This document shows, in pieces, positions 3,942 to 63,983 of a stretch of 64,000 bases of DNA (position 1 is its first letter; every line of letters starts with the position of its first letter). This DNA is from Escherichia coli (lineage in GTDB: Bacteria > Pseudomonadota > Gammaproteobacteria > Enterobacterales > Enterobacteriaceae). The translations under genes and the position numbers were made by a program. The DNA lies in NCBI RefSeq assembly GCF_013122565.1, contig NZ_CP053258.1, one strand, 5' to 3'. The notes beneath the pieces were generated by a model, which saw nothing but the letters and a program-made list of their open reading frames with translations, made no database searches and was not told the DNA's origin.

Positions 3942-4979
3942 TTAATCATCACCCGCCACGCGGATCACCACTTTGCCGAAGTTTTTACCCTTCAGCAGGC
4001 CGATAAACGTCTGTGGCGCATTCTCTAAACCGTCAGTAATTTCTTCGCGGTAGTGGATTTTATCCTCTTTCACCCATTGCCCCATCTCCTTCTGAAACTC
4101 ATGGATGCGGTGACCATAATCCTGAGCAATAATAAACCCTTGCAAGCGAATACGTTTTTTCAGCACCGTAGCCATCAACAAAGGTAATCGATCCGGACCG
4201 GGTGGTAGCTCTGTAGCGTTATAGCTGCTCACTAAGCCGCAGACGGGAATGCGCGCAGATGTATTAAGTAACGGTAGCACCGCATCAAATACCTTACCGC
4301 CCACGTTTTCATAATAGATATCAATACCTTTTGGGCACGCTTTCGCCAGTTGATCGGCAAAATCATCCGCGTGGTGATCAAGACAAACATCGAAGCCCAG
4401 CACCTCGGTAGCATGGCGGCATTTTTCCGCGCCACCGGCAACCCCCACCACCCTGCAACCTTTAAGTTTGCCGATTTGCCCCACCGTTGCTCCCACAGGA
4501 CCTGTCGCCGCCGCAACCACCAGCGTTTCGCCCTCTTTAGGCTGACCGATATCCAGCAGGCCCATATAAGCGGTAAAGCCTGGCATCCCCAGCACACCTA
4601 GCGACCACGATGGATTTTGCGGATGATCGCCAAGTTTCACCAGTTCATCACCATTGGATATGTCATAGTCCTGCCATCCACTGTAGCCCAGCACCCAGTC
4701 GCCAGGCTGATAATCAGGATGATTCGACTCCACGACACGGCTCACCGTACCGCCGACCATCACGCCGCCAATATCAACCGGCGGTGAATAAGATGGCTCA
4801 TCGCTCATACGTCCACGCATATACGGGTCCAGTGACAAATAAACTGTGCGCAGTAACACCTGTCCTTCACCCGGTGTGGCGACATCATCTTCTTCAAGAC
4901 GGAAATTCTCCGGAACCGGCGCGCCATGCGGACGCGAGGCCAGAACCCAACGGCGGTTACGCTGCTTTTGTTGCCCCAT
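3942..4979 (-). CDS. curA: NADPH-dependent curcumin/dihydrocurcumin reductase (zinc-independent MDR family)
   Basis: ORF 3942..5072 trimmed to the MGQQKQRNRRWVLASRPHGAP start (345 aa); Rossmann motif AAATGPVGATVGQIGK. Confidence 0.85.
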   Translation of the reverse strand: MGQQKQRNRRWVLASRPHGAPVPENFRLEEDDVATPGEGQVLLRTVYLSLDPYMRGRMSDEPSYSPPVDIGGVMVGGTVSRVVESNHPDYQPGDWVLGYSGWQDYDISNGDELVKLGDHPQNPSWSLGVLGMPGFTAYMGLLDIGQPKEGETLVVAAATGPVGATVGQIGKLKGCRVVGVAGGAEKCRHATEVLGFDVCLDHHADDFADQLAKACPKGIDIYYENVGGKVFDAVLPLLNTSARIPVCGLVSSYNATELPPGPDRLPLLMATVLKKRIRLQGFIIAQDYGHRIHEFQKEMGQWVKEDKIHYREEITDGLENAPQTFIGLLKGKNFGKVVIRVAGDD

Positions 4980-29856: not shown

Positions 29857-30121
29857 CGACCAAAAACCTCTTTGCGTCACATTTTTACAACAATTATTGC
29901 AGAGAAGATTAATGCTATTGGAATGAAGAGAGTAACGAATGGCTAAACCGAATGACGAAAAATTCTGGAAAACAGCACGCAATTTCGTGAAGTGATTATT
30001 TTCGTCCCTAAGGAAACCTCATAGGATGCCTGCGGGTGCCTGAGACTTTCTGTTTTCAGGCTAACCGGGAATCAGAAAGACGAAGGCCCCGACCGATATT
30101 TCTATCAACCGAGGCCAACGA

Positions 30122-30329
<208 letters not shown>

Positions 30330-30400
30330 GGGCAAGCGCGGGGATTTTCCCCGCGCATCTGACTAGCAGATTCATTTTCTCATGGCACCCCTTTTACACT

Positions 30401-30574
30401 TCAGTTAGTGCATGTTTTTTTCGATGCACTAATAGAACCATCATTACAGACAAATTTGCCGCCTGCCGTACAGTGTGAGATCCCCCCTTTCGAACCAGAA
30501 CAGGGTTTGCGCCCGGCATCGGCATAAAAGGAAACAAGCGTTCCCATAAACAAAATAAGTGCCAGTTTTTTCAT
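30401..30574 (-). CDS. ydcA: Small secreted cysteine-containing protein YdcA (57 aa)
   Basis: Hand translation of the minus strand: MKKLALILFMGTLVSFYADAGRKPCSGSKGGISHCTAGGKFVCNDGSISASKKTCTN; GGAGG Shine-Dalgarno upstream. Confidence 0.75.
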   Translation of the reverse strand: MKKLALILFMGTLVSFYADAGRKPCSGSKGGISHCTAGGKFVCNDGSISASKKTCTN

Positions 30575-30745
30575 ATAACCTCCATGGTTTATCGAATCTT
30601 ATGTTCGATTTGAACGTTATACGCTGGTTTATTTTGATACCGTTGATGAGATCAAAGATCGGGTGAATTGATTAAAAATAAGGCAGATGGACGTATGGGC
30701 AAGGATTATGGTTTTATTTGTCATACAAATAAATATAATAGGCGC

Positions 30746-30809
30746 TTCCGATGTAGACCCGTATTCTTCGCCTGTACCACGGGTCGGTTTTAGTACAGGC
30801 GTTTTCTTT
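30746..30809 (+). ncRNA. rydC: RydC small RNA (Hfq-dependent pseudoknot sRNA)
   Basis: cttccgatgtagacccgtattcttcgcctgtaccacgggtcggttttagtacaggcgttttctt matches RydC as I recall it; TATAAT box about 8 nt upstream; ends in a hairpin (gcctgtac / gtacaggc) plus U-run. Confidence 0.65.
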
Positions 30810-30818
30810 AAATATCCT

Positions 30819-31349
30819 TCAGGAACGTTTACGCGGCATCATGCGTAGAAGTGTGTTGTCCTTCCAGAAATAGTGGTGTGCCAGTGCAGCCGCAGCGTGC
30901 AACCCGATGAGAAAATATCCCAGATTCGCCAGCGTCTCATGCCACGACTTTAAGCTATCAACCCGTTCGAAATTGGCCTCTGAAGCGTAAGGCATCGTCA
31001 AACCAAACGCAAACCACGGGTTGCCCCGGTTATACATCATCACCAAACCAATCACTGGCAGCGCAATAAACAGGAGATAAATCACCAAATGTCCCAAATG
31101 CGCCAGTCCCGTCATCATCGGTTTCGGCTTAGGTATAATCGGCGGGGTTGGGTATTTCAGTCTTAACAAAAGACGAACCACCATCAGCACGAGAATTGAG
31201 ATGCCACAGGAAACATGAATCATGTTGATGAGCGGCCGATCGCTACGTGGGAAGAAACCCCGAAACTCCATTGCGCAATACGCTGCGATAACCAGCAAAA
31301 AGACCAGCCAGTGAATGCTGATTTGTAACCTTGAGTATTTATTTTCCAT
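30819..31349 (-). CDS. cybB: Cytochrome b561
   Basis: ORF 30819..31385 trimmed to the MENKYSRLQISIHWLVFLL start (176 aa); four transmembrane helices with conserved histidines. Confidence 0.85.
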   Translation of the reverse strand: MENKYSRLQISIHWLVFLLVIAAYCAMEFRGFFPRSDRPLINMIHVSCGISILVLMVVRLLLRLKYPTPPIIPKPKPMMTGLAHLGHLVIYLLFIALPVIGLVMMYNRGNPWFAFGLTMPYASEANFERVDSLKSWHETLANLGYFLIGLHAAAALAHHYFWKDNTLLRMMPRKRS

Positions 31350-31537: not shown

Positions 31538-32539
31538 ATGAGTAAAGTTGGTATTAACGGTTTTGGTCGTATCGGTCGACTGGTGTTGCGTCGATTACTT
31601 GAAGTCAAAAGCAACATAGACGTTGTCGCTATTAATGATCTTACTTCCCCAAAAATTCTCGCCTATCTGCTGAAACATGATTCAAACTATGGTCCGTTCC
31701 CCTGGAGCGTTGATTTTACGGAAGATTCACTTATCGTTGATGGGAAAAGTATCGCGGTTTACGCCGAAAAAGAGGCTAAAAATATTCCGTGGAAAGCGAA
31801 AGGTGCAGAAATCATTGTCGAATGTACTGGCTTTTATACCTCCGCCGATAAATCGCAGGCGCATCTTGATGCTGGTGCGAAGAAGGTGTTGATTTCCGCT
31901 CCTGCCGGTGAAATGAAAACCATCGTTTATAACGTTAATGACGACACTCTGGATGGCAACGATACCATTGTTTCCGTGGCGTCATGCACCACTAACTGCC
32001 TTGCGCCGATGGCCAAAGCCTTGCATGACAGTTTCGGGATAGAAGTCGGCACGATGACGACCATTCATGCCTATACTGGCACCCAGTCACTGGTGGATGG
32101 CCCGCGTGGTAAAGATTTACGTGCTTCACGCGCCGCGGCAGAAAATATCATTCCCCACACTACGGGGGCGGCAAAAGCCATTGGTCTGGTGATCCCGGAA
32201 CTGAGCGGCAAACTGAAAGGTCATGCGCAACGCGTGCCGGTGAAAACAGGTTCGGTCACTGAACTGGTATCGATTCTCGGAAAAAAAGTGACTGCCGAAG
32301 AGGTGAATAACGCACTTAAACAAGCAACCACCAATAACGAGTCATTTGGTTATACCGATGAAGAAATAGTCTCTTCCGATATCATTGGCAGCCATTTCGG
32401 TTCGGTGTTTGATGCCACGCAAACGGAAATTACCGCCGTGGGCGATTTACAACTGGTGAAAACGGTCGCCTGGTACGATAACGAATATGGCTTCGTCACG
32501 CAGCTTATTCGCACCCTCGAAAAATTCGCTAAACTCTGA
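31538..32539 (+). CDS. gapC: Glyceraldehyde-3-phosphate dehydrogenase GapC, intact 333-aa reading frame
   Basis: Uninterrupted ORF with the NAD-binding N-terminus ([10 protein letters not shown]) and catalytic motif SCTTNCLAP. Confidence 0.85.
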
Positions 32540-48237: not shown

Positions 48238-51200
48238 TTAGAACGTTTTCTTGAAGTTCAGCATCACGCCTTTGTCGCTGATGCCGTCCTCTTTCCAGTT
48301 GTACGCATCCAGGTTCAGTGAGCTTTCTTTGCTGCTGTACTTCACGCCGACGCTTGCCAGGCTGTTGATGCCGCCACCCTTCTGACCGTCATCGACGTTA
48401 AAGTGCTGACTGCCTGCGCCTGCCAGGCTTGCCGTGCGCTGGCTCTTCGCGTAGCTCAGATTCGGCCCGCCTTCCAGCGTGGCGCTAGCGCTCCAGCCGT
48501 CTTTACCTGCGTAATCCAGTTTCAACCCGACGATGCTGTCCACCGCCGTTTCGCTGCCACTGTTCATATTCAGGTTAAAGTCTCCGGCATTGCGCTCCTG
48601 ATAGCCACCTTCCAGTGTGTGACGCAGTTTAACACCCGCATATGGCGTAACCTTCAGTCCTTCGCTCGGTTCGAAAGTCTTCGCCCCTTCGCTGCGGAAC
48701 TCCAGGTACTGCTGCTTCACGTCGGTATCAGCCGTTTTGTTTGTGTTGCTAAATGCAATCGAACGGCTGCTGTCAAGGTTGTGAACGTCATAACGCAATG
48801 CGTTATTCCAGTTCATGCCGTTGTCGAAGGACATCTGATGTTTCAGGCCAAAGAACTGGCTGTAGCCGCCGGTTACGCCGTTGTCGCCCGCTTTCTGCGC
48901 ACCATCGCCATCCAGACGCGCAATACCGTATTCCAGGCTCATGCTCTGGCTTTCGCTCAGGTCGATGGTTTTACGCAATGCCAGCATGTCGTACTCGGTA
49001 TTATTACCTAACTCGGCACGCGGATCGCCTTTCGCCACCACGTTGAACGCCAGACCATTGCCCACTTTCGGCGCGGCATCCGCCAGCATACTAAAGCGGT
49101 TGCTTAACACGCGCGCTTCACGGAACACCGTGGTCGCCAGGCTACCGCTGACCTGTTTCAGGGCGCTGTTCAGTTCGGCGGTGGTGCCAACGTTCAGGCT
49201 GGTATACAGCTCGTTGTTGGTGTAACCCGCATCCAGTGCCTTCGCGACGTCATTTACCGAAGCATCGGTTGCGACATCGGTGTAGGCATTTTTGCTCATG
49301 GTAACGTCAACGTTACCGTTGGCATCGGTGCTGCCTTTGGCGTTCCATACGACCGTAGAGGAAACGATGTTGTCCACACCGCTGATGTTTTCGCCTTTGA
49401 ATACATCGTTAACGACAACGGTGGTATCCGCTGTTCCTGCACTAAACCCGGCATTAACACTCACGTTGTCGCCAATCACCAGGTTATTCGCGCTGAGCGT
49501 ACCGGAACTCCCGTCGCTATTGGTACCGATGGTATAGTTGCTCAGCAGTTGCGGCGCATTTGAATCAGCAGGCGGGGTTGGAACATCACCTTGTGACGGC
49601 GTAGTTGATGCGTCTGGTACGGTGATATCCACAGTACCGTTGTGGTCGTTTTGTGTACCCGTTGTTCCAGGAGCATAAATATCGCATCCGGTATCACACA
49701 GCAGGTTAATTTCACCGTTGTTAATGATGGCTTTCGTTTGCCCACCAAACGCCCAGGAATTATCGGCATAGACATTAATCACACCCGTTTGCGTGTTATT
49801 AATTGTTGTTTCCCGACCATTGCCTTTAATACCAATTAAACCTTCGCCATTGGTTCCATCCTGTTGCCCCTGCTCAGTACCCACATTAATGGTGCCACTG
49901 TTCACCAACTGAACAACATAACTGGTTGTGCCGCCACTGATGCCCACCGCATTATCGCCCTGAACATTAATAACGCCAGCGTTAGCAAAGTTATAACCTC
50001 GTCCTAAATCAACCAACGGAGCCGCAGGGTTAATACCATTGATTACCCCTGTTTCTGTGTTCCAGATCCATTTACCTTTACTGTTCGAGCCAGTACTTTC
50101 GGTTTTGATCGCGCTGTAGCCATTTGTAGCCGTAATGGTTCCACGGTTAACCTGAGATACAGAATCCCCGGTTCTGGTTACATGAATAATCGCGTTTTCA
50201 CCGCCCGTTACCGCATTACCACTATTCGTCAGGGTCGCACCCGCTTCGTTGAAGAACAGGAAACTCCCGTTGATGAGTGATTGCCCATCTTCGGTCACCG
50301 TCATTTCACCGGTATTCACTACGTTCTGTTGATAGCTGTTGCCGGTAATTGAACCGCTGAACTCACCTTCGTTAAAGAAGGAAACCGCACCATTCAACGT
50401 AAGGAGATCTGTTGTCATGCTCCCGGTTTCACGGTTATAGATCGTGGTTTTGCTGTTAATACTGTCAACATCCAGGGTCCCACTATTCTCCAACCCTTGA
50501 GTGACACTCAGTTCGCCATTGATGGTCAGACTGGCATCAGGTTGGTTATATAACCAGCCGTTTGCATCAACATTGCCATTAAGCGTTTCATCTCCGTAGT
50601 TTGCCAGGTTATTAACAACGACAAAACCGTCGGTAGTTGTGGTTTTGCTGATGCTCTCCCCGCTACCAGACAACTCGCTAAGAACATCTTTGTCATCCGG
50701 CGTCACCCCCATATGGGAATCACTTTCATCCATTGGATTACCGAAAAGAGTAATTTTTCCGTAGTTGAGAATGGTACCGGTGCTATCTTTATAAAACGCC
50801 TGACCAATATCAGTATTAATATTAATCACACCATCCTGGTCATTAATGGCCAGACCACCTTGAATTGCCCCCATCGCGAACAACTGGTTATCTTGCTGCT
50901 TCGTCACACCCTCATCGGCGGTGAGATTGATCGTTCCCTGGTTGACAACGGTCCCGCCGCTCATCGCCAGCATACCAAAACCTTCGTTATTAACATTGAT
51001 GGTTCCGGTATTTAACCCACTGGCATCGCCATTTCCGATATCGGTTGACCCTACAACAACGCCACCGGACATAAGATAAGGATGGGGTGGTTGCCAGTAG
51101 GATTTACTAATGATATTGCCATCTTCATCAAGTTCGGGAACAAAACCATCGACATTGATTTCCCCGGCATTTGTCGCCGTGCCTTTAGATGCTGCAGCAG

Positions 51201-54200
51201 CATAGTTTCCCGCGCCTTGCAAATTAATGGTGGCGTCAGATTCATTCACTGTGATGCCGTAATCACTGGCCCACAGCCCGTAGTTGACACCGAAATACCA
51301 TTTCAGGGGGGATTCAGACATCCCGCCTGCGTATGCAGGTGTCGTTACAGAGATCAGATTAATAACCCCACCCGACGCATTCGTAACCTGAGAATTCTGG
51401 CCACGAGCACGCATTGTCCCCCCCCTGGAGAATTCCTCACCGCTAGGTTTGACATTAATAATTCCACTATTAGTGATATGTGCACCATTGTTAGCCGTCA
51501 TTAAATCCTGGCTATCCATTGTGTTAATCACACCTTTGTTTTCAACGCTGGACTGACTGCCAATAGCAGAAATAAGCGCACGTTCAAAGAAGAAAAAGTC
51601 GGTTTCCCTGGCTTTACTGGATATATCCGTTACAGCGTTTTCATCAAATATAACTTTTCCACCGTCCGCCACCGAGACCAACGTAAAGGCACCCAATTCC
51701 TGACGGGTATCCATTGTCGAATGACCACTAATGTTAACGGTATTGTCACCAATAACCGATACGCCATCTATAACATGTGCGGCGCTATCACCACTAATAT
51801 TAATACCGCCATCAATATTAACGGTATTCTTCTCGCCAGAAACAATTATGCCACTCACTAAATTTTCCTGGTGTAGCAGCTCCCCTTGTACGGTGATATC
51901 AACATGGCCACTAATATCTACAGTGTTATTTTTACCACTAATCGTTCCACCTGTTAATGCTGTGATTTGTGCATCAGGGTTATCGCCGAGGATGGAATTA
52001 ACATTGATGCTTCCGTCAACGCTAATATGGCTGTCATTACCCGTCAGACTGAAACCTGTAGCACCCGGCGCATTGCCCTCGCTGTCTGGTTGCTGGAATA
52101 CGTTAATATCGCCGCTTAATTGAACCTGTTCACGGTCACCCGCAATGGATACCCCAGTTCCGTACCGTGAAACATCAATTTCGCCCACGTTACCGAAAAC
52201 TTCATCATCACCATCAATCAGAATCCCCACAGAACCGGAATCCGTGACAACAATTTTGCCTTTATTACTTAACTGCGAGTTATTACCGGCAATATCAATA
52301 CCCGTTGCCCCTCCGCTGACGTAGAGGTCACCTTCCTGGCTAATTGTTGCATTGTGACCGGCAACTTTTGTCCCTACTGCATTCGCACCGTCAACCGTCA
52401 TATCCCCGGCGATATTCATCTCATTGCCATCGCCAGTGATGGTTATACCTGTGGCATTTTCACCCAAAATATTAAGATCATAGGTTGCCAGGGTTATACT
52501 ATTGTTGTCGCCGATAATCTCCATGCCAGTCGTATCGTCTTTAACCAGCATTGAGCCAGCAAGAGAAATACTGCTGCTGTCCCCGGTGATTTTTACACCA
52601 GTACCGCTATTTGTTGTGGTGATGTCTCCCACATTGACAAAGGTAGTATTATCACCATTGATTAACACGCCGTAGGGGTTTCCGTCACTGTCCGCCTGAC
52701 CTACATTGATATCACCAATGTTCATAAAGGTTGTTTGATCGCCATCCAGCAATACACCGATGGAAGTATCATCCACCACAGTAACATTACCCTTATTACT
52801 GACGAGAGTACCTTTACCCTCGGCGTCAATACCGTGTGCGCCACCGCTGACGTATAAATCACCCTGTTGCCTTACAATGGCATCTTCGCCGATAATTTTT
52901 GATCCCGTTGAATTTGCACCATCGACGGTCATGTCGCCTTTGATTTCAATGCGGGCATCATCCCCTGTAATCACACTCCCCGTGCCACCATTCGTGATTT
53001 CGACATCACCAACGGTGTTCAACGTAGTACGATCGCCATTGACAATAACGGCCGTACCACCATCGACATCTGTCTCACCATTATTAGTAATGGTGATATC
53101 GTCACCGGTAAGAATACCTACCACCGAACCTTCACCAATCGCGGTAGTTTGACCGTCGTTGTTCAGGGTGATGTCGTTACCGTCAACGTTTATCACAACG
53201 CCGCCATTCAGCGCGATGTTGCCGCCATGGTCGGTAATAGTGGCATCGTTAATATGGAAATGTTCGCCAGTTGTACCGTCTGCGGTGGTGAGTGACTCTA
53301 TGATTATTTCGATTTTTCCCGCTTCGTCATAGCGCCAGGTGGAGGTTCCGCTCGGATTGACGCCATTGAACGAAGCAGTGTTAGCCGCCTCGTCGACTAA
53401 CCAATCCTTTACGATTGTGGTAGTGCCGCCAGGTCCGGTAAGCGTATAGCTGCCATCGTCATTTTTGGTGTAGGTAAAGGTGGTATCACGTAATTTTAGG
53501 GTCTTCGCGTCCTGATCCCAGGTGACATCGTTTTTATAGACCACTGGATCGTGTTTAACTGGCGTGTCATCGCCACCGTCATCCGGGGTGTCATCGCCGC
53601 CATCATCTGGCGGGACGGGGGTGTCGCCGCCATCATCCGGCGGGACTGGTGTGTCGCCGCCATCATCCGGCGGGACTGGTGTATCACCGCCATCATCCGG
53701 CGGGACTGGTGTGTCGCCGCCATCATCCGGCGGGACTGGTGTGTCACCGCCATCATCCGGCGGGACAGGTGTATCACTGCCATCGTCTGGCGGGACTGGC
53801 GTGTCGCCGCCATCATCCGGCGGGATGGGTGTATCACCGCCATCATCCGGCGGGACGGGTGTATCACCGCCATCATCCGGCGGGACTGGCGTGTCGCCGC
53901 CATCATCCGGCGGGACGGGTGTATCACCACCATCATCCGGCGGGACTGGCGTGTCGCCGCCATCATCCGGCACCGGAGACGAATCGTCATGATGATTATT
54001 ATTATCGTGGAGTGCATATACTGCGACACCTGTGACTGCCGCTGCCAGCCCCACTGCAGCCCAGGGTAATAACTCATTATCTTCAACTGATTTACACTCT
54101 GCCGGCAGCTTTTCTAGCTGTTCTTTACTTAGTGATTTAATATTGGCCGGGCAGCTAATCTTGCTGGATTTACGAGATTCATCCGATGTTTCCGCTATCG

Positions 54201-54273
54201 ACGTATCTGCCGCCCATGTCTGGCTGCTTAACGCCATTGCAACACAGACACTGAGCAATTTTTTCCTTTGCAT
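48238..54273 (-). CDS. ydbA: YdbA, giant type Va autotransporter (AIDA-like), intact 2011-aa reading frame
   Basis: Single 6036-nt ORF: signal peptide, Pro/Asp/Gly decapeptide repeat stalk, very long Gly/Thr/Asn-rich beta-helical passenger with pervasive internal repeats, and a C-terminal beta-barrel translocator ending MLNFKKTF. Confidence 0.9.
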   Translation of the reverse strand: MQRKKLLSVCVAMALSSQTWAADTSIAETSDESRKSSKISCPANIKSLSKEQLEKLPAECKSVEDNELLPWAAVGLAAAVTGVAVYALHDNNNHHDDSSPVPDDGGDTPVPPDDGGDTPVPPDDGGDTPVPPDDGGDTPVPPDDGGDTPIPPDDGGDTPVPPDDGSDTPVPPDDGGDTPVPPDDGGDTPVPPDDGGDTPVPPDDGGDTPVPPDDGGDTPVPPDDGGDDTPDDGGDDTPVKHDPVVYKNDVTWDQDAKTLKLRDTTFTYTKNDDGSYTLTGPGGTTTIVKDWLVDEAANTASFNGVNPSGTSTWRYDEAGKIEIIIESLTTADGTTGEHFHINDATITDHGGNIALNGGVVINVDGNDITLNNDGQTTAIGEGSVVGILTGDDITITNNGETDVDGGTAVIVNGDRTTLNTVGDVEITNGGTGSVITGDDARIEIKGDMTVDGANSTGSKIIGEDAIVRQQGDLYVSGGAHGIDAEGKGTLVSNKGNVTVVDDTSIGVLLDGDQTTFMNIGDINVGQADSDGNPYGVLINGDNTTFVNVGDITTTNSGTGVKITGDSSSISLAGSMLVKDDTTGMEIIGDNNSITLATYDLNILGENATGITITGDGNEMNIAGDMTVDGANAVGTKVAGHNATISQEGDLYVSGGATGIDIAGNNSQLSNKGKIVVTDSGSVGILIDGDDEVFGNVGEIDVSRYGTGVSIAGDREQVQLSGDINVFQQPDSEGNAPGATGFSLTGNDSHISVDGSINVNSILGDNPDAQITALTGGTISGKNNTVDISGHVDITVQGELLHQENLVSGIIVSGEKNTVNIDGGINISGDSAAHVIDGVSVIGDNTVNISGHSTMDTRQELGAFTLVSVADGGKVIFDENAVTDISSKARETDFFFFERALISAIGSQSSVENKGVINTMDSQDLMTANNGAHITNSGIINVKPSGEEFSRGGTMRARGQNSQVTNASGGVINLISVTTPAYAGGMSESPLKWYFGVNYGLWASDYGITVNESDATINLQGAGNYAAAASKGTATNAGEINVDGFVPELDEDGNIISKSYWQPPHPYLMSGGVVVGSTDIGNGDASGLNTGTINVNNEGFGMLAMSGGTVVNQGTINLTADEGVTKQQDNQLFAMGAIQGGLAINDQDGVININTDIGQAFYKDSTGTILNYGKITLFGNPMDESDSHMGVTPDDKDVLSELSGSGESISKTTTTDGFVVVNNLANYGDETLNGNVDANGWLYNQPDASLTINGELSVTQGLENSGTLDVDSINSKTTIYNRETGSMTTDLLTLNGAVSFFNEGEFSGSITGNSYQQNVVNTGEMTVTEDGQSLINGSFLFFNEAGATLTNSGNAVTGGENAIIHVTRTGDSVSQVNRGTITATNGYSAIKTESTGSNSKGKWIWNTETGVINGINPAAPLVDLGRGYNFANAGVINVQGDNAVGISGGTTSYVVQLVNSGTINVGTEQGQQDGTNGEGLIGIKGNGRETTINNTQTGVINVYADNSWAFGGQTKAIINNGEINLLCDTGCDIYAPGTTGTQNDHNGTVDITVPDASTTPSQGDVPTPPADSNAPQLLSNYTIGTNSDGSSGTLSANNLVIGDNVSVNAGFSAGTADTTVVVNDVFKGENISGVDNIVSSTVVWNAKGSTDANGNVDVTMSKNAYTDVATDASVNDVAKALDAGYTNNELYTSLNVGTTAELNSALKQVSGSLATTVFREARVLSNRFSMLADAAPKVGNGLAFNVVAKGDPRAELGNNTEYDMLALRKTIDLSESQSMSLEYGIARLDGDGAQKAGDNGVTGGYSQFFGLKHQMSFDNGMNWNNALRYDVHNLDSSRSIAFSNTNKTADTDVKQQYLEFRSEGAKTFEPSEGLKVTPYAGVKLRHTLEGGYQERNAGDFNLNMNSGSETAVDSIVGLKLDYAGKDGWSASATLEGGPNLSYAKSQRTASLAGAGSQHFNVDDGQKGGGINSLASVGVKYSSKESSLNLDAYNWKEDGISDKGVMLNFKKTF
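53565..53975 (-). repeat. About 13 to 14 near-identical 30-bp tandem repeats inside ydbA, encoding PVPPDDGGDT units
   Basis: Directly visible periodicity: (ggtgtcgccgccatcatccggcgggactgg)n with only a few substitutions; in-frame units (PVPPDDGGDT, PIPPDDGGDT, PVPPDDGSDT) at about residues 100 to 240. Confidence 0.9.
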
Positions 54274-54674
54274 ATGAAATTCCTCATAAATAGATGCTTA
54301 CGCAGCCCAGATAAACTGCACAGGGTTAAATAGTTAAAAATATTCGAAATCTGGATATTGTTTTTAACAGAATAAATATATTGATTTAGTGAATGTATTT
54401 ATTCATTAAGTCAATATATCTTTTCTTTAATTTATATTTTTAACGCATTTATTTCAACTTAAAATATGGCGTAATTGAGATTAAATCCGATAACACCGAT
54501 GAATTAAATAATGCAATTAATTCATGAAATAAATAAATTATCATGTGAATGAAGCATTCATCATCGGCATCTATATGAAATTAAATGAAAAATAATTCTC
54601 TATAGCATTGCAGTTAATATTGAATATTTCAGGAGGTACAACCAGGCAGATTTTTCTCGACGAATACCGACTTA

Positions 54675-55001
54675 TTATTTTTGCAACCACATTCCGTTTA
54701 TCCCGCGAATGTATTCTCCCGGCTTAGCTTTTGCTACCAGTTTCTGCCCCGCCAATTTTTCCACTTCCGCAACCGGCAGATTATTTTTCATGGCGAGTTG
54801 TTGATAGCTCTTATTACGCGATTCATTAATCCTTTTGACTAACATCTGTGTTTCGGTATCCGCCTTTAATGCAACCAGATAACCATTATACGTTTCGCCA
54901 ACACGCCCCTGAGTTCGAGCGTCATCCAGCGTCAGAGCCATCGCACTGGTGCTAAATAAGGCATTAATGACAAAACACAGTATTAAACTTCTCTTCATCA
55001 T
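54675..55001 (-). CDS. ydbL: Periplasmic protein YdbL (DUF1318)
   Basis: ORF 54675..55079 trimmed to the MMKRSLILCFVINALFSTSAMA start (108 aa) with a signal peptide; third gene of ydbH-ynbE-ydbL. Confidence 0.8.
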   Translation of the reverse strand: MMKRSLILCFVINALFSTSAMALTLDDARTQGRVGETYNGYLVALKADTETQMLVKRINESRNKSYQQLAMKNNLPVAEVEKLAGQKLVAKAKPGEYIRGINGMWLQK

Positions 55002-55005
55002 CGCC

Positions 55006-55191
55006 TCAGAAAAGATCGCTACGAGTTTCAAGCAGCTCTTCGACATCTTTGTCTGCCTTGATGATGATCTCATGCTCAATTTTAACGTTCATATTGATAG
55101 TGATCGGTTCCTTAGGTGCAGCGACTTCAATGCGAGGCGTACAGCCAACCAGCATAAAAGATGACGTCAACGCAGCCAGTAAAATTTTCAT
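55006..55191 (-). CDS. ynbE: Small lipoprotein YnbE (61 aa)
   Basis: MKILLAALTSSFMLVGCTPRIEV... with a lipobox (LVGC); its start overlaps the ydbH stop by 4 nt. Confidence 0.8.
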   Translation of the reverse strand: MKILLAALTSSFMLVGCTPRIEVAAPKEPITINMNVKIEHEIIIKADKDVEELLETRSDLF

Positions 55192-57827
55192 TGTTTTTCC
55201 TCACACTCTTTTCCTTGCGGACAGTCATTTCCCGGCAGACGTGCGTTCTGCTCCAACCATGCCTGGAGATTATCGCCAAAGCGTAAACTGCGCCACAGCG
55301 TAAAAATATTCTCTTCATGATGGTAATTAAGGTTTACCGTACCGCTTTTACCATCAACGCGACTGGTACCTGTAATGTTGGCCTGCATGGTTAATAAACC
55401 GAGATTATCTAAATTAATATTTGTCGATGAACGGCTAATTTCCATATAGCGCAACCAGTTAATTGCTGAACCCGCAGTCATATTGTCTTTCACCACCGCA
55501 TCTGCGGTGTCTTTATCCAGCCGCAAGGTCATTGGCCCGCTATTTGCCAGCCAACCATCTTTCACAATCCATTTTTCGTTGTTTAGCCATAACGGCAATG
55601 CACCACTAAATGCCCCGGACATGGCGAATTGTTTCGGATTGATGGCGCTAACCAGTTCGCTGGATGAGAGATTATTCAGCCGCAACAGCGCCGGGTCATG
55701 TTGCGGCATACGTAATTGTTTCATCAGCACGTTACCGCCTAACACATCGACGCTAACATCAGTCAACAGCAATGGTTCTTCTTCTGTCCACGGATAGCGC
55801 CCTTGCAAATCAGCCGTAATATTTTTCGCTGTCACCAGATTAATCACTTCGGCAATTCGCAACGTAACGGGGCCGCGAGTCCCCAGATGCCAGGCTCCAT
55901 CGGCAAAACGGAAAGGCAGGACAAAATCGACACCGTTAACCTGATTATCTGGCATCCAGGCACTACCGCCTTTCAACACGCCGTGCCCTCCCGCGCGGAA
56001 TCCTTGTTCAGGCGCAGCAGAAAATGCAACCTGAGCATACAGTTCACCATCGCGTAAGTTCATCTTCCAGTCGGGTGGCACCAGCGGCTGGAATACAGTC
56101 AGTGATTGTTTAGGCCACCAGGCGTTACCGCGCAGACGAATACCGTCCCAGCGACCATTTACCCGAACCGGGCCAATCTCACCAGCATGTAAATCGCCTT
56201 TAAAGAGGAAATAGGTAGGATCGCGCCCATCGACACTAAATTTTAAGGTTGATGGCGGTAACAGACTGCCGCCAGTGAACAGCGTTTGCCCGGCGTCCAG
56301 TGACAGCGCGCCGCTGAAGGAGGGATGCTGTGCGTCACGTACCCAGACGACGGGCTTGTCGAGAATTAGTCGCGGCTTTTCTACCGTCATCGTACCGTAT
56401 TGTAACTGGTCGAAACCGGTGGAGAGATCGGTCAGCGTAATCGTGCTGTCATGCCACTCACCTTTTCCTGCGACATCCCAGGTGGCATTCATCGGTGTAA
56501 AACTGCCTTTTCCCCAGTAGCGCCACTGCCAGCGGCCAGCGTCAGGGAGAAAATCATTCGCCAGCCCATCCATATGCAGCACGAAATCGCCCAGTTCATT
56601 TTCATGCGCCTGCAAGATGGCCTGCAAACGTCCGTCAACACCACGTTGGGTGACTTTTACACCCGCTAAAGGCCAGCGGATTTCATCGATGTCCAGCGAA
56701 TCGATGACTCTTCCCTTCGAACGTAATAACGCGCCTGGCTCAAAGGCTAACGTTGGGTCAGTCAGACTTCCACTTAGCTGCGCGGGTAAGCGGGCATATA
56801 AAATGAGGTCCGCCTGTTTCGCTTCACCGGTCAGCTGCAGAGGCAGCTGACTGTTATCCATGCTTAATTTTCCTGGGCCAAAATTAAGCACCGCGTTGCC
56901 CTTACCCGCTTGCCCCTGGGTCAGCACACTCAGTCGTCCGCTGACCACTGCGTTCTCGATACCTGCCTGCCAGTTGTCGACTTTGACACCCAGTCGTCCA
57001 CTCAAAGGAAAACCTACATACGGCCAGCTCCAGCGACCATCGCTTACCGTCAATTGTTGACGAGTAATTTGCCACGGCAAATCGAGCAACGGATCGCCGT
57101 TATCCCGTGCCAGCACAATCAATTGCCCGCTATTTTCCTGCCAGTCCAGCTCGGCATCCACCAGTGACGGTTCCTGCGGCAAGTTTAACGTCGCAGTAGC
57201 ATGCCCACTTACAGGAAGTCCATCCGGCACTAGCGGCATAGTAAATTCCCCCACCAGTTTTACCGGCGGCTGATTTTCAAACGCGGCGACATCCAGTTCG
57301 CTGACTGTAAGTTGTTGCCCTTTCAACTGGCCTTGAAATTTAACTTTTTCGCCCTGATAACGCAGTTGCTGGATATCAGAGGTTAATGCGAGAGAGAGTT
57401 TTCCCTGCCATTCCTGCCAAGGAGAAAAAATCAGTTTATCGATATTGATCCAGGTGTTAGGCAGCATGGACTGCCACTGCGCGAGGGTTTTTGGAGCGGC
57501 TGGCGATTGCTCCGTCTGCGGCAATTTCGCCAGACAAGCAGAATCAAGTTCTACCGTGCCGACGTTCAATAACCAGCGGCTGGGATGTGAAAGGCTGGCG
57601 TTGGTGATATGCGCAAGCTGACAATCTCCCACCAGATAACGGAGATCGGGAATGATTAAACCTTTACGCGTAATGCGTGGGCTTTCATCTAATGCAATAC
57701 GTGTCCCGAGCGGTAGCCAGATGCCCGCCAGCGTGGGAACCCACAGCCCGAGCGTCATCAGCAGCGTCAACGGCACAAGAATAATCAGTAATAACAGCGC
57801 GAGAACGGCTTTATATTTACCCAGCAT
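55188..57827 (-). CDS. ydbH: AsmA-like large envelope protein YdbH
   Basis: 879-aa ORF with an N-terminal membrane anchor (MLGKYKAVLALLLLIILVPLTLLMTLGLWV) followed by a long predicted periplasmic domain. Confidence 0.85.
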   Translation of the reverse strand: MLGKYKAVLALLLLIILVPLTLLMTLGLWVPTLAGIWLPLGTRIALDESPRITRKGLIIPDLRYLVGDCQLAHITNASLSHPSRWLLNVGTVELDSACLAKLPQTEQSPAAPKTLAQWQSMLPNTWINIDKLIFSPWQEWQGKLSLALTSDIQQLRYQGEKVKFQGQLKGQQLTVSELDVAAFENQPPVKLVGEFTMPLVPDGLPVSGHATATLNLPQEPSLVDAELDWQENSGQLIVLARDNGDPLLDLPWQITRQQLTVSDGRWSWPYVGFPLSGRLGVKVDNWQAGIENAVVSGRLSVLTQGQAGKGNAVLNFGPGKLSMDNSQLPLQLTGEAKQADLILYARLPAQLSGSLTDPTLAFEPGALLRSKGRVIDSLDIDEIRWPLAGVKVTQRGVDGRLQAILQAHENELGDFVLHMDGLANDFLPDAGRWQWRYWGKGSFTPMNATWDVAGKGEWHDSTITLTDLSTGFDQLQYGTMTVEKPRLILDKPVVWVRDAQHPSFSGALSLDAGQTLFTGGSLLPPSTLKFSVDGRDPTYFLFKGDLHAGEIGPVRVNGRWDGIRLRGNAWWPKQSLTVFQPLVPPDWKMNLRDGELYAQVAFSAAPEQGFRAGGHGVLKGGSAWMPDNQVNGVDFVLPFRFADGAWHLGTRGPVTLRIAEVINLVTAKNITADLQGRYPWTEEEPLLLTDVSVDVLGGNVLMKQLRMPQHDPALLRLNNLSSSELVSAINPKQFAMSGAFSGALPLWLNNEKWIVKDGWLANSGPMTLRLDKDTADAVVKDNMTAGSAINWLRYMEISRSSTNINLDNLGLLTMQANITGTSRVDGKSGTVNLNYHHEENIFTLWRSLRFGDNLQAWLEQNARLPGNDCPQGKECEEKQ

Positions 57828-63618: not shown

Positions 63619-63646
63619 ATGCACTGGATAAGGATTATCCAATTCT

Positions 63647-63684
63647 AAAAAAAAGCCCGGACGACTGTTCGGGCTTGTCTTTTT
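63647..63684. terminator. Bidirectional Rho-independent terminator shared by pfo and micC
   Basis: GC-rich hairpin (gcccg ... cgggc, 63654..63676) flanked by A8 upstream and gtcttttt downstream, so a U-run follows on either strand. Confidence 0.7.
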
Positions 63685-63756
63685 ATATGTTAGAAAATCA
63701 GTGGCAATGCAATGGCCCAACAGAAAATAAAATCTGTGACAATAAAGGCATATAAC
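63648..63756 (-). ncRNA. micC: MicC small RNA (Hfq-dependent repressor of ompC/ompD)
   Basis: Reverse complement reads gttatatgcctttattgtcacagattttattttctgttgggccattgcattgccactgatttt...aagcccgaacagtcgtccgggctttttttt, matching MicC as I recall it; divergent from ompN. Confidence 0.7.
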
Positions 63757-63983
63757 CCGCGCAGAATAACGTATAGCAAATTAAAAGTATAATTTTTATT
63801 TTGTATGTATTATCTTCGATACATTCACCAGACTTATTATCATTTCAGAAGAATTATTTGATTAAGGTTTTACTTAAGGCGTAACAAATGATATTTATCG
63901 GCTAACTGAACTTCTCCTTTAGGATGTTTTCACTCCCCGAAATGGGGATAAAAGGCAAATAAAATAACTAAAGGATTTATTCA

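Follow-up and report, generated by a model that had tools for sequence, protein, structure and literature searches.

The window, as the whole 64-kb stretch of Escherichia coli DNA analysed here is called, carries the gene of the small RNA RydC on its plus strand, divergent from ydcA on one side and convergent with cybB on the other (Table 1). An Rfam scan of the whole window returned RydC (RF00505) at 30745-30808 on the plus strand with a score of 92.5 bits against a gathering threshold of 48 (E = 5.2e-17), and the match is full length, covering positions 1-64 of the 64 positions of the model. The only other gathering-level Rfam matches in the 64 kb were sok and MicC. In an alignment, all 65 of the 65 nt between 30745 and 30809 are identical to rydC of K-12 (b4597), which the MG1655 record places at NC_000913.3 1491442-1491506 between cybB (b1418) and ydcA (b1419). 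The original prediction, read from the sequence alone, had put a RydC sRNA at 30746-30809 between ydcA and cybB and had named a covariance-model search as its check; the Rfam match, the identity with b4597 and the synteny all bear out the gene. The predicted 3' end is that of the 65-nt form, whereas the predicted start lay one base too far 3', the first base of the RNA being the C at 30745.

Table 1. Features of the rydC locus and its surroundings, with coordinates in the window.
Feature	Position	Strand	Basis and remarks
sok RNA	30034-30185	+	Rfam, 109.7 bits
HokB, 49-aa ORF	30180-30329	+	ORF
yncP small ORF	30307-30375	-	ORF/annotation; opposite HokB
ydcA, 57-aa periplasmic protein	30401-30574	-	57-aa ORF; K-12 annotation; divergent from rydC
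Palindrome ATTTGTCATACAAAT, probable operator of YieP (GntR/FadR-type repressor)	30716-30730	.	15/15 motif match; -29 to -15
-10 box TATAAT, sigma-70 rydC promoter	30734-30739	+	Read from sequence; 5 nt before +1
rydC small RNA, 64-nt and 65-nt forms	30745-30809	+	Rfam RF00505, K-12 identity, Term-seq ends
5' seed CUUCCGAUGUAG	30745-30756	+	Invariance and PMC4337610; single-stranded, pairs with targets
Pseudoknot helix S1, GACCCGU/ACGGGUC	30756-30762 with 30779-30785	+	Rfam consensus structure
Helix S2 (terminator stem), CGCCUGUAC/GUACAGGCG	30769-30777 with 30793-30801	+	Minimum-free-energy stem
3' U-rich tail UUUUCUUU	30802-30809	+	Read from sequence; terminator U tract, Hfq proximal-face site (literature)
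cybB (cytochrome b561 / superoxide oxidase)	30819-31349	-	ORF ...MMPRKRS*; K-12 and XH990 annotation; convergent with rydC
MicC sRNA	63639-63759	-	Full-length Rfam match, 121 bits; adjoins ompN

With a probability of about 0.97, the feature is the known rydC gene, which encodes an Hfq-dependent, trans-acting enterobacterial sRNA. Every RydC family feature that can be checked by sequence is present, namely the model score, the seed, the pseudoknot pairing, the terminator with its tail, the synteny and the target complementarity, and no evidence was found against the identification. A 301-nt query around the rydC locus matched 5415 of 5426 complete E. coli genomes at an identity of at least 95%. 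Short plus-strand ORFs over rydC (41 and 53 aa) were considered as coding sequences and rejected, since the sRNA explains the sequence fully and the ORFs lack support. As a discovery, rydC is minor: RydC has been known since 2003-2005 and has an Rfam family, a crystal structure with Hfq, targets and, since 2024, a repressor. What the case does illustrate is that a 64-nt sRNA was recognised from raw sequence almost to the base.

Several other features of the window were noted in passing. A hokB/mokB/sokB type I toxin-antitoxin locus (30034-30375) lies just beyond ydcA. At 31538-32539 there is an intact ORF for gapC (glyceraldehyde-3-phosphate dehydrogenase, 333 aa), which is a pseudogene (b4493) in K-12 MG1655. 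An intact 2011-aa ORF (48238-54273, minus strand) occupies the position of the ydbA autotransporter gene, which in K-12 is interrupted by IS elements.

Homologues were sought with the pattern CTTCCGATGTNGACCCGT against one genome per species, and 13 loci were returned. Three of these, from unrelated MAGs (L006, L009 and L015; Clostridia, Terrabacteria and Kiritimatiellae), had no Rfam RydC match and were dropped as chance matches; one further locus (L013) is truncated where its sequence ends. The RNA alignment comprises nine RydC homologues from three genera and the upstream comparison ten homologous loci, and every RydC copy, whether from Escherichia, Salmonella or Citrobacter, exceeds the Rfam threshold. 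The 3' neighbour of rydC is cybB at nine of the ten homologous loci, that of Citrobacter koseri having been recognised by its 3'-terminal sequence rather than by the ORF scan. This cybB/ydcA context of rydC has been described before (Bianco et al., 2024; PMC11340327). The C. koseri locus (L007) also holds a fluoride riboswitch (RF01734, 50.2 bits) at 3981-4053 on its minus strand, about 4.6 kb from rydC and unrelated to the rydC finding.

The pseudoknot, the 5' seed, the UU steps and the Hfq contacts of RydC are known from a crystal structure (Dimastrogiovanni et al., 2014; PMC4337610). The published pseudoknot was mapped onto the nine-homologue alignment and its pairs were counted, with the 3' partners slid along as the control. 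Standard pairs filled 99.3% of the cells for the two-helix pseudoknot in the nine homologues, compared with 26-44% when the partners were slid. Helix S2 carries the covariation, with all nine pairs formed in all nine homologues and compensatory double changes at four of them. For S1, all seven pairs form in nine of nine homologues and no pair varies; being invariant, the helix is consistent with the structure but uninformative as to covariation. An eighth S1 pair is found as A11-U in the other eight homologues and is A-G in the window and K-12. Both UU steps are present, U23/U24 at 30767-30768 and U46/U47 at 30790-30791, which in the crystal structure contact the rim of Hfq, while the 3' U tail touches its central channel (PMC4337610). 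With these sequence features in place, Hfq would be expected, as in the literature, to hold RydC by its 3' U tail and the UU steps of its loops.

The second helix of the pseudoknot is also the stem of the terminator. Folding gives a hairpin with a 9-bp stem and a 16-nt loop followed by UUUUCUUU, at about -14 kcal/mol. For K-12 RydC, Term-seq placed very strong 3' ends at 1491443 and 1491442 (Adams et al., 2021; PMC7815308 supplement), the equivalent bases of the identical sequence being 30808 and 30809 in the window; these are the ends of the 64-nt and 65-nt forms and the last two U residues of the UUUUCUUU tail. RydC would as such be a transcript of 64-65 nt that stops at its own intrinsic terminator, and the pseudoknot to which the terminator stem belongs would keep roughly the first 11 nt unpaired, available as a seed. 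The original prediction had spoken of a strong intrinsic terminator; the terminator is indeed intrinsic, but the scan for terminators missed its stem and the nested fold scored a z of only -0.69, neither of which speaks for the word strong. Both results have a structural explanation. The simple consensus scan allows loops of up to 8 nt and so passed over the true terminator of RydC (the S2 stem), whose loop has 16 nt; the 6-bp hairpin that it called instead at 30770-30784 is spurious, and folding, covariation and Term-seq were relied on in its place. The nested minimum-free-energy fold of the RydC 65-mer was no better than those of its shuffles, as is to be expected of a pseudoknot, and the nested fold was therefore rejected as a test.

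Nucleotides 1-18 of RydC are invariant in the nine homologues of three genera and include the conserved seed CUUCCGAUGUA, which the pseudoknot model leaves unpaired; the role of the 5' end as a seed is established in the literature (PMC4337610). According to published work, the seed pairs with target mRNAs; the main target is the long cfa 5' UTR, which RydC stabilises and shields from Rho termination, leading to more cyclopropane fatty acid synthesis. Repression of pheA, trpE, csgD and yejABEF is likewise attributed to RydC in the literature. Here, an unbroken run of 11 pairs, one of them G-U, can form between nt 2-12 of RydC and the stretch at about -109 to -99 in the 5' UTR of K-12 cfa. At -19.5 kcal/mol, the most stable RydC-cfa duplex was equalled by 17 of 500 shuffles, which suggests a complementarity only modestly above chance, supportive rather than decisive.

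Upstream of the RNA, the TATAAT box that had been predicted is present, and it is kept in nine of ten homologues, with TATACT in C. koseri. The rydC promoter has no recognisable -35 box, and a consensus scan found no -35/-10 pair for it, in agreement with its description as a sigma-70 promoter whose -10 box is perfect and which lacks a -35 box (Bianco et al., 2024; PMC11340327). The same study identified the GntR-family protein YieP as a repressor of rydC: a rydC'-lacZ fusion rose 20-fold in a yieP deletion, and by Northern blot RydC was detectable only in the deletion, the gene being nearly silent in wild type (PMC11340327). No YieP site at rydC was named there, and it was noted there that the YieP regulon of one ChIP-exo study does not contain rydC. 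In Nguyen-Vo et al. (2020; PMC7642389), rydC and ydcA are among the ChIP-exo-derived candidate targets of YieP, and the idea that a match to a YieP site at rydC would be unreported was rejected on that ground.

The palindrome ATTTGTCATACAAAT is centred at -22, inside the rydC core promoter and 3 nt from the -10 box, and its reverse complement is identical to the YieP motif atTTGTaTGAcaAAT derived from ChIP-exo (Nguyen-Vo et al., 2020; PMC7642389). In the 64-kb window, 30716-30730 is the sole site that fits the YieP motif with no or one mismatch. The identical 15-mer stands upstream of K-12 ykgE and a version with three mismatches upstream of yohJ, and the ykgE and yohJ operons (ykgEFG and yohJK) are the two that YieP represses most strongly. 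Across the ten homologues, the -10 box and the palindrome are the parts of the upstream region that have been kept, the remainder having diverged. The exact palindrome is found 3 nt from the -10 box in seven of the ten; its centre is inverted in C. koseri, and variants with one or two mismatches occur in E. coli E69 and Citrobacter Awk 4. On this footing YieP most likely acts directly at 30716-30730, occluding the rydC promoter, where it would block RNA polymerase and hold rydC nearly silent until relieved. The palindrome thereby offers a concrete, testable site for a repression reported from genetics, and it adds little to what is already published.

A natural variant falls within this putative operator. 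At 30720 the window has a G in the left half-site, which makes the palindrome perfect, and K-12 and E. coli E69 have an A at this base. The K-12 operator is accordingly the one-base variant ATTTATCATACAAAT, with ATTTAT in place of the ATTTGT of the window. With this variant, K-12 rydC is still repressed 20-fold; the G/A difference might nevertheless change how tightly rydC is repressed.

At the other end of the gene, only 9 nt (30810-30818) separate the 3' end of RydC from the cybB stop codon (30819-30821), and four Escherichia sequences have gaps of 7-9 nt at this place. The geometry that had been predicted, with the terminator abutting a stop codon of the opposite strand, is thus right. Nine nucleotides cannot accommodate a terminator for cybB as well, so that transcription of cybB has to continue into rydC in the antisense direction. 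In E. coli, cybB thus has neither the space nor a canonical signal for a terminator of its own. The original prediction had supposed that the two convergent transcripts probably share termination signals; this was not supported, in view of the tail that follows the hairpin on the cybB strand, the missing Term-seq end and a separate terminator in Citrobacter.

On the cybB strand the hairpin does form (11 pairs, -16.9 kcal/mol), and it is followed by AAGAAUAC and not by a U tract. The terminator scan found no minus-strand terminator between cybB and ydcA (30575-30819). Moreover, Term-seq in three growth conditions (Adams et al., 2021; PMC7815308) has no listed 3' end for the cybB strand at the hairpin or beyond it; the sole cybB-strand end listed is weak and internal to the ORF, at K-12 1491416, equivalent to 30835 in the window. 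This weak end on the minus strand falls 16 nt short of the cybB ORF end and 26 nt short of the RydC 3' end, in the loop of a hairpin at 30828-30849, and it could be a decay product or the footprint of a polymerase roadblock. In Citrobacter, cybB has its own canonical terminator, a GC-rich hairpin with a U tract, between its stop codon and rydC, in a gap of 47 nt (two species) or about 35 nt (C. koseri). A dedicated cybB terminator in Citrobacter means that sharing is not a conserved feature of the rydC locus.

Two readings of the cybB end can be set against these observations. The one that fares better, and that we hold at slightly below even odds, is that cybB transcripts cross rydC antisense and are ended by Rho in the spacer between cybB and ydcA, or run on into ydcA, with no part played by the hairpin. 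It accords with the minus strand having neither a U tract after the hairpin nor a detected terminator down to ydcA, and with the fact that untranslated RNA past the cybB stop would be open to Rho. The composition also fits: the plus-strand GC skew is +0.39 to +0.53 across 30600-30739, which gives the minus-strand RNA about three C per G, and such C-rich, G-poor RNA is typical of Rho loading sites. Against it, Adams et al. (2021; PMC7815308) tabulate no region of Rho termination with coordinates in the interval, and the spacer has no listed cybB-strand 3' ends either, although low expression of cybB could explain the absence of both kinds of entry.

It is unlikely, in our judgement, that the RydC hairpin works both ways, ending rydC on the plus strand and cybB on the minus strand, whether as a true intrinsic terminator or as a site of pausing and collision. 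The narrow gap does send cybB transcription into the hairpin region, the structure forms on the minus-strand RNA as well, and in Escherichia the scan detects no other minus-strand terminator from cybB to ydcA. Furthermore, bidirectional terminators unlike intrinsic ones have been described between convergent E. coli genes, with pausing and head-on collision proposed as their mode of action (bioRxiv 10.1101/2022.10.23.513370), and the weak end at 30835, which stops short of the RydC 3' end, could fit a roadblocked polymerase. A bidirectional intrinsic terminator would, however, carry a U tract on both strands, and here UUUUCUUU on the plus strand is opposed by AAGAAUAC on the minus strand, which lacks the defining part of such a terminator. 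Mapped 3' ends of both transcripts would also be expected, and in the one dataset used, in which cybB may be poorly expressed, no cybB-strand end appears at or after the hairpin in any of the three conditions. Collisions would be rare with rydC nearly silent in wild type, the 30835 end sits in the loop of a small cybB-internal hairpin and may be a product of decay, and the separate canonical terminator kept by Citrobacter indicates that sharing is not ancestral to the locus.

A further reading, in our view rather improbable, is that Escherichia lost the cybB terminator still kept in Citrobacter, so that cybB transcription now runs antisense through rydC and its promoter and the two genes regulate each other in cis. 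Such interference could take the form of collision at the RydC hairpin, of promoter occlusion, or of pairing between RydC and a fully complementary 3' extension of the cybB transcript. If true, it would tie the level of a membrane superoxide oxidase to an sRNA that remodels membrane lipids.

The most similar genome found for the locus, XH990 (NZ_CP019359.1), is 100% identical over the 301 nt of the rydC query, and over the stretch shown its RefSeq record annotates none of rydC, sokB and micC. As the locus is identical and yet unannotated, the missing annotation is no evidence of absence. The supposition that the RF00505 match is a relic or a chance resemblance, with no functional sRNA in the source strain, can draw on that annotation and on the expression evidence being all from K-12, but it is close to untenable in the face of a covariance-model E of 5e-17, complete identity with the K-12 gene that experiments have characterised, a -10 box and operator that are intact, near-universal presence in E. 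coli and compensatory changes across genera.

Over the window as a whole, collinearity with XH990, the best match of the 301-nt query, was considered and rejected, as identity is about 98% and there are an IS-sized indel and a divergent autotransporter gene; the XH990 annotation was used only where coordinates had been verified. Compared with XH990, the window lacks about 1.75 kb at about 19097/19098, which in XH990 is an IS200/IS605 element (insQ/tnpB and a tnpA pseudogene) between ydcO and ydcL. The stretch of the autotransporter gene at about 49350-54780 gave no BLAST match to XH990, and its flanks are 97-98% identical. Near about 54300-55200, the nearest annotated genome has ydbL directly beside the autotransporter gene, and in the window no more than about 33 kb lies between rydC and MicC. 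In K-12, the paa/tynA/feaRB cluster lies between these two genes of the autotransporter region, and it thus appears to be absent from the window at this point.

Returning to rydC as the known sRNA gene, its locus can be compared with several known systems. The bidirectional terminators mapped by SEnd-seq, for example that of ynaJ-uspE, resemble the rydC-cybB arrangement in having a hairpin element between convergent units with no room for two terminators. Unlike that class, rydC-cybB has neither a mapped cybB-strand 3' end nor a U tract on that strand, and rydC is normally repressed. With regard to the promoter, ykgEFG and yohJK are, like rydC, derepressed on deletion of yieP, and ykgE shares ATTTGTCATACAAAT with the window; these are protein operons, whereas rydC is an sRNA gene whose candidate site lies in the core promoter at -22.

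The rydC gene of K-12 has in common with the window all 65 nt of the RNA, the -10 box, the ydcA and cybB neighbours, the 9-nt gap and the helices of the pseudoknot, and it differs by just two substitutions in the 100 nt upstream of the gene in the alignment, one of them the G/A difference in the palindrome. Salmonella RydC, the one crystallised with Hfq and an activator of cfa, likewise has the invariant seed at its 5' end, an unchanged helix 1, both loops with their UU steps and the U tail, and its gene is convergent with cybB and has the palindrome in its promoter. The gap to cybB is 79 nt in S. arizonae as against 9 nt in the window, and the 5' neighbour in Salmonella is also different. The second helix is preserved between the two by compensatory changes, with GUAC/GUAC in the window RydC and GCGU/ACGC in Salmonella RydC.
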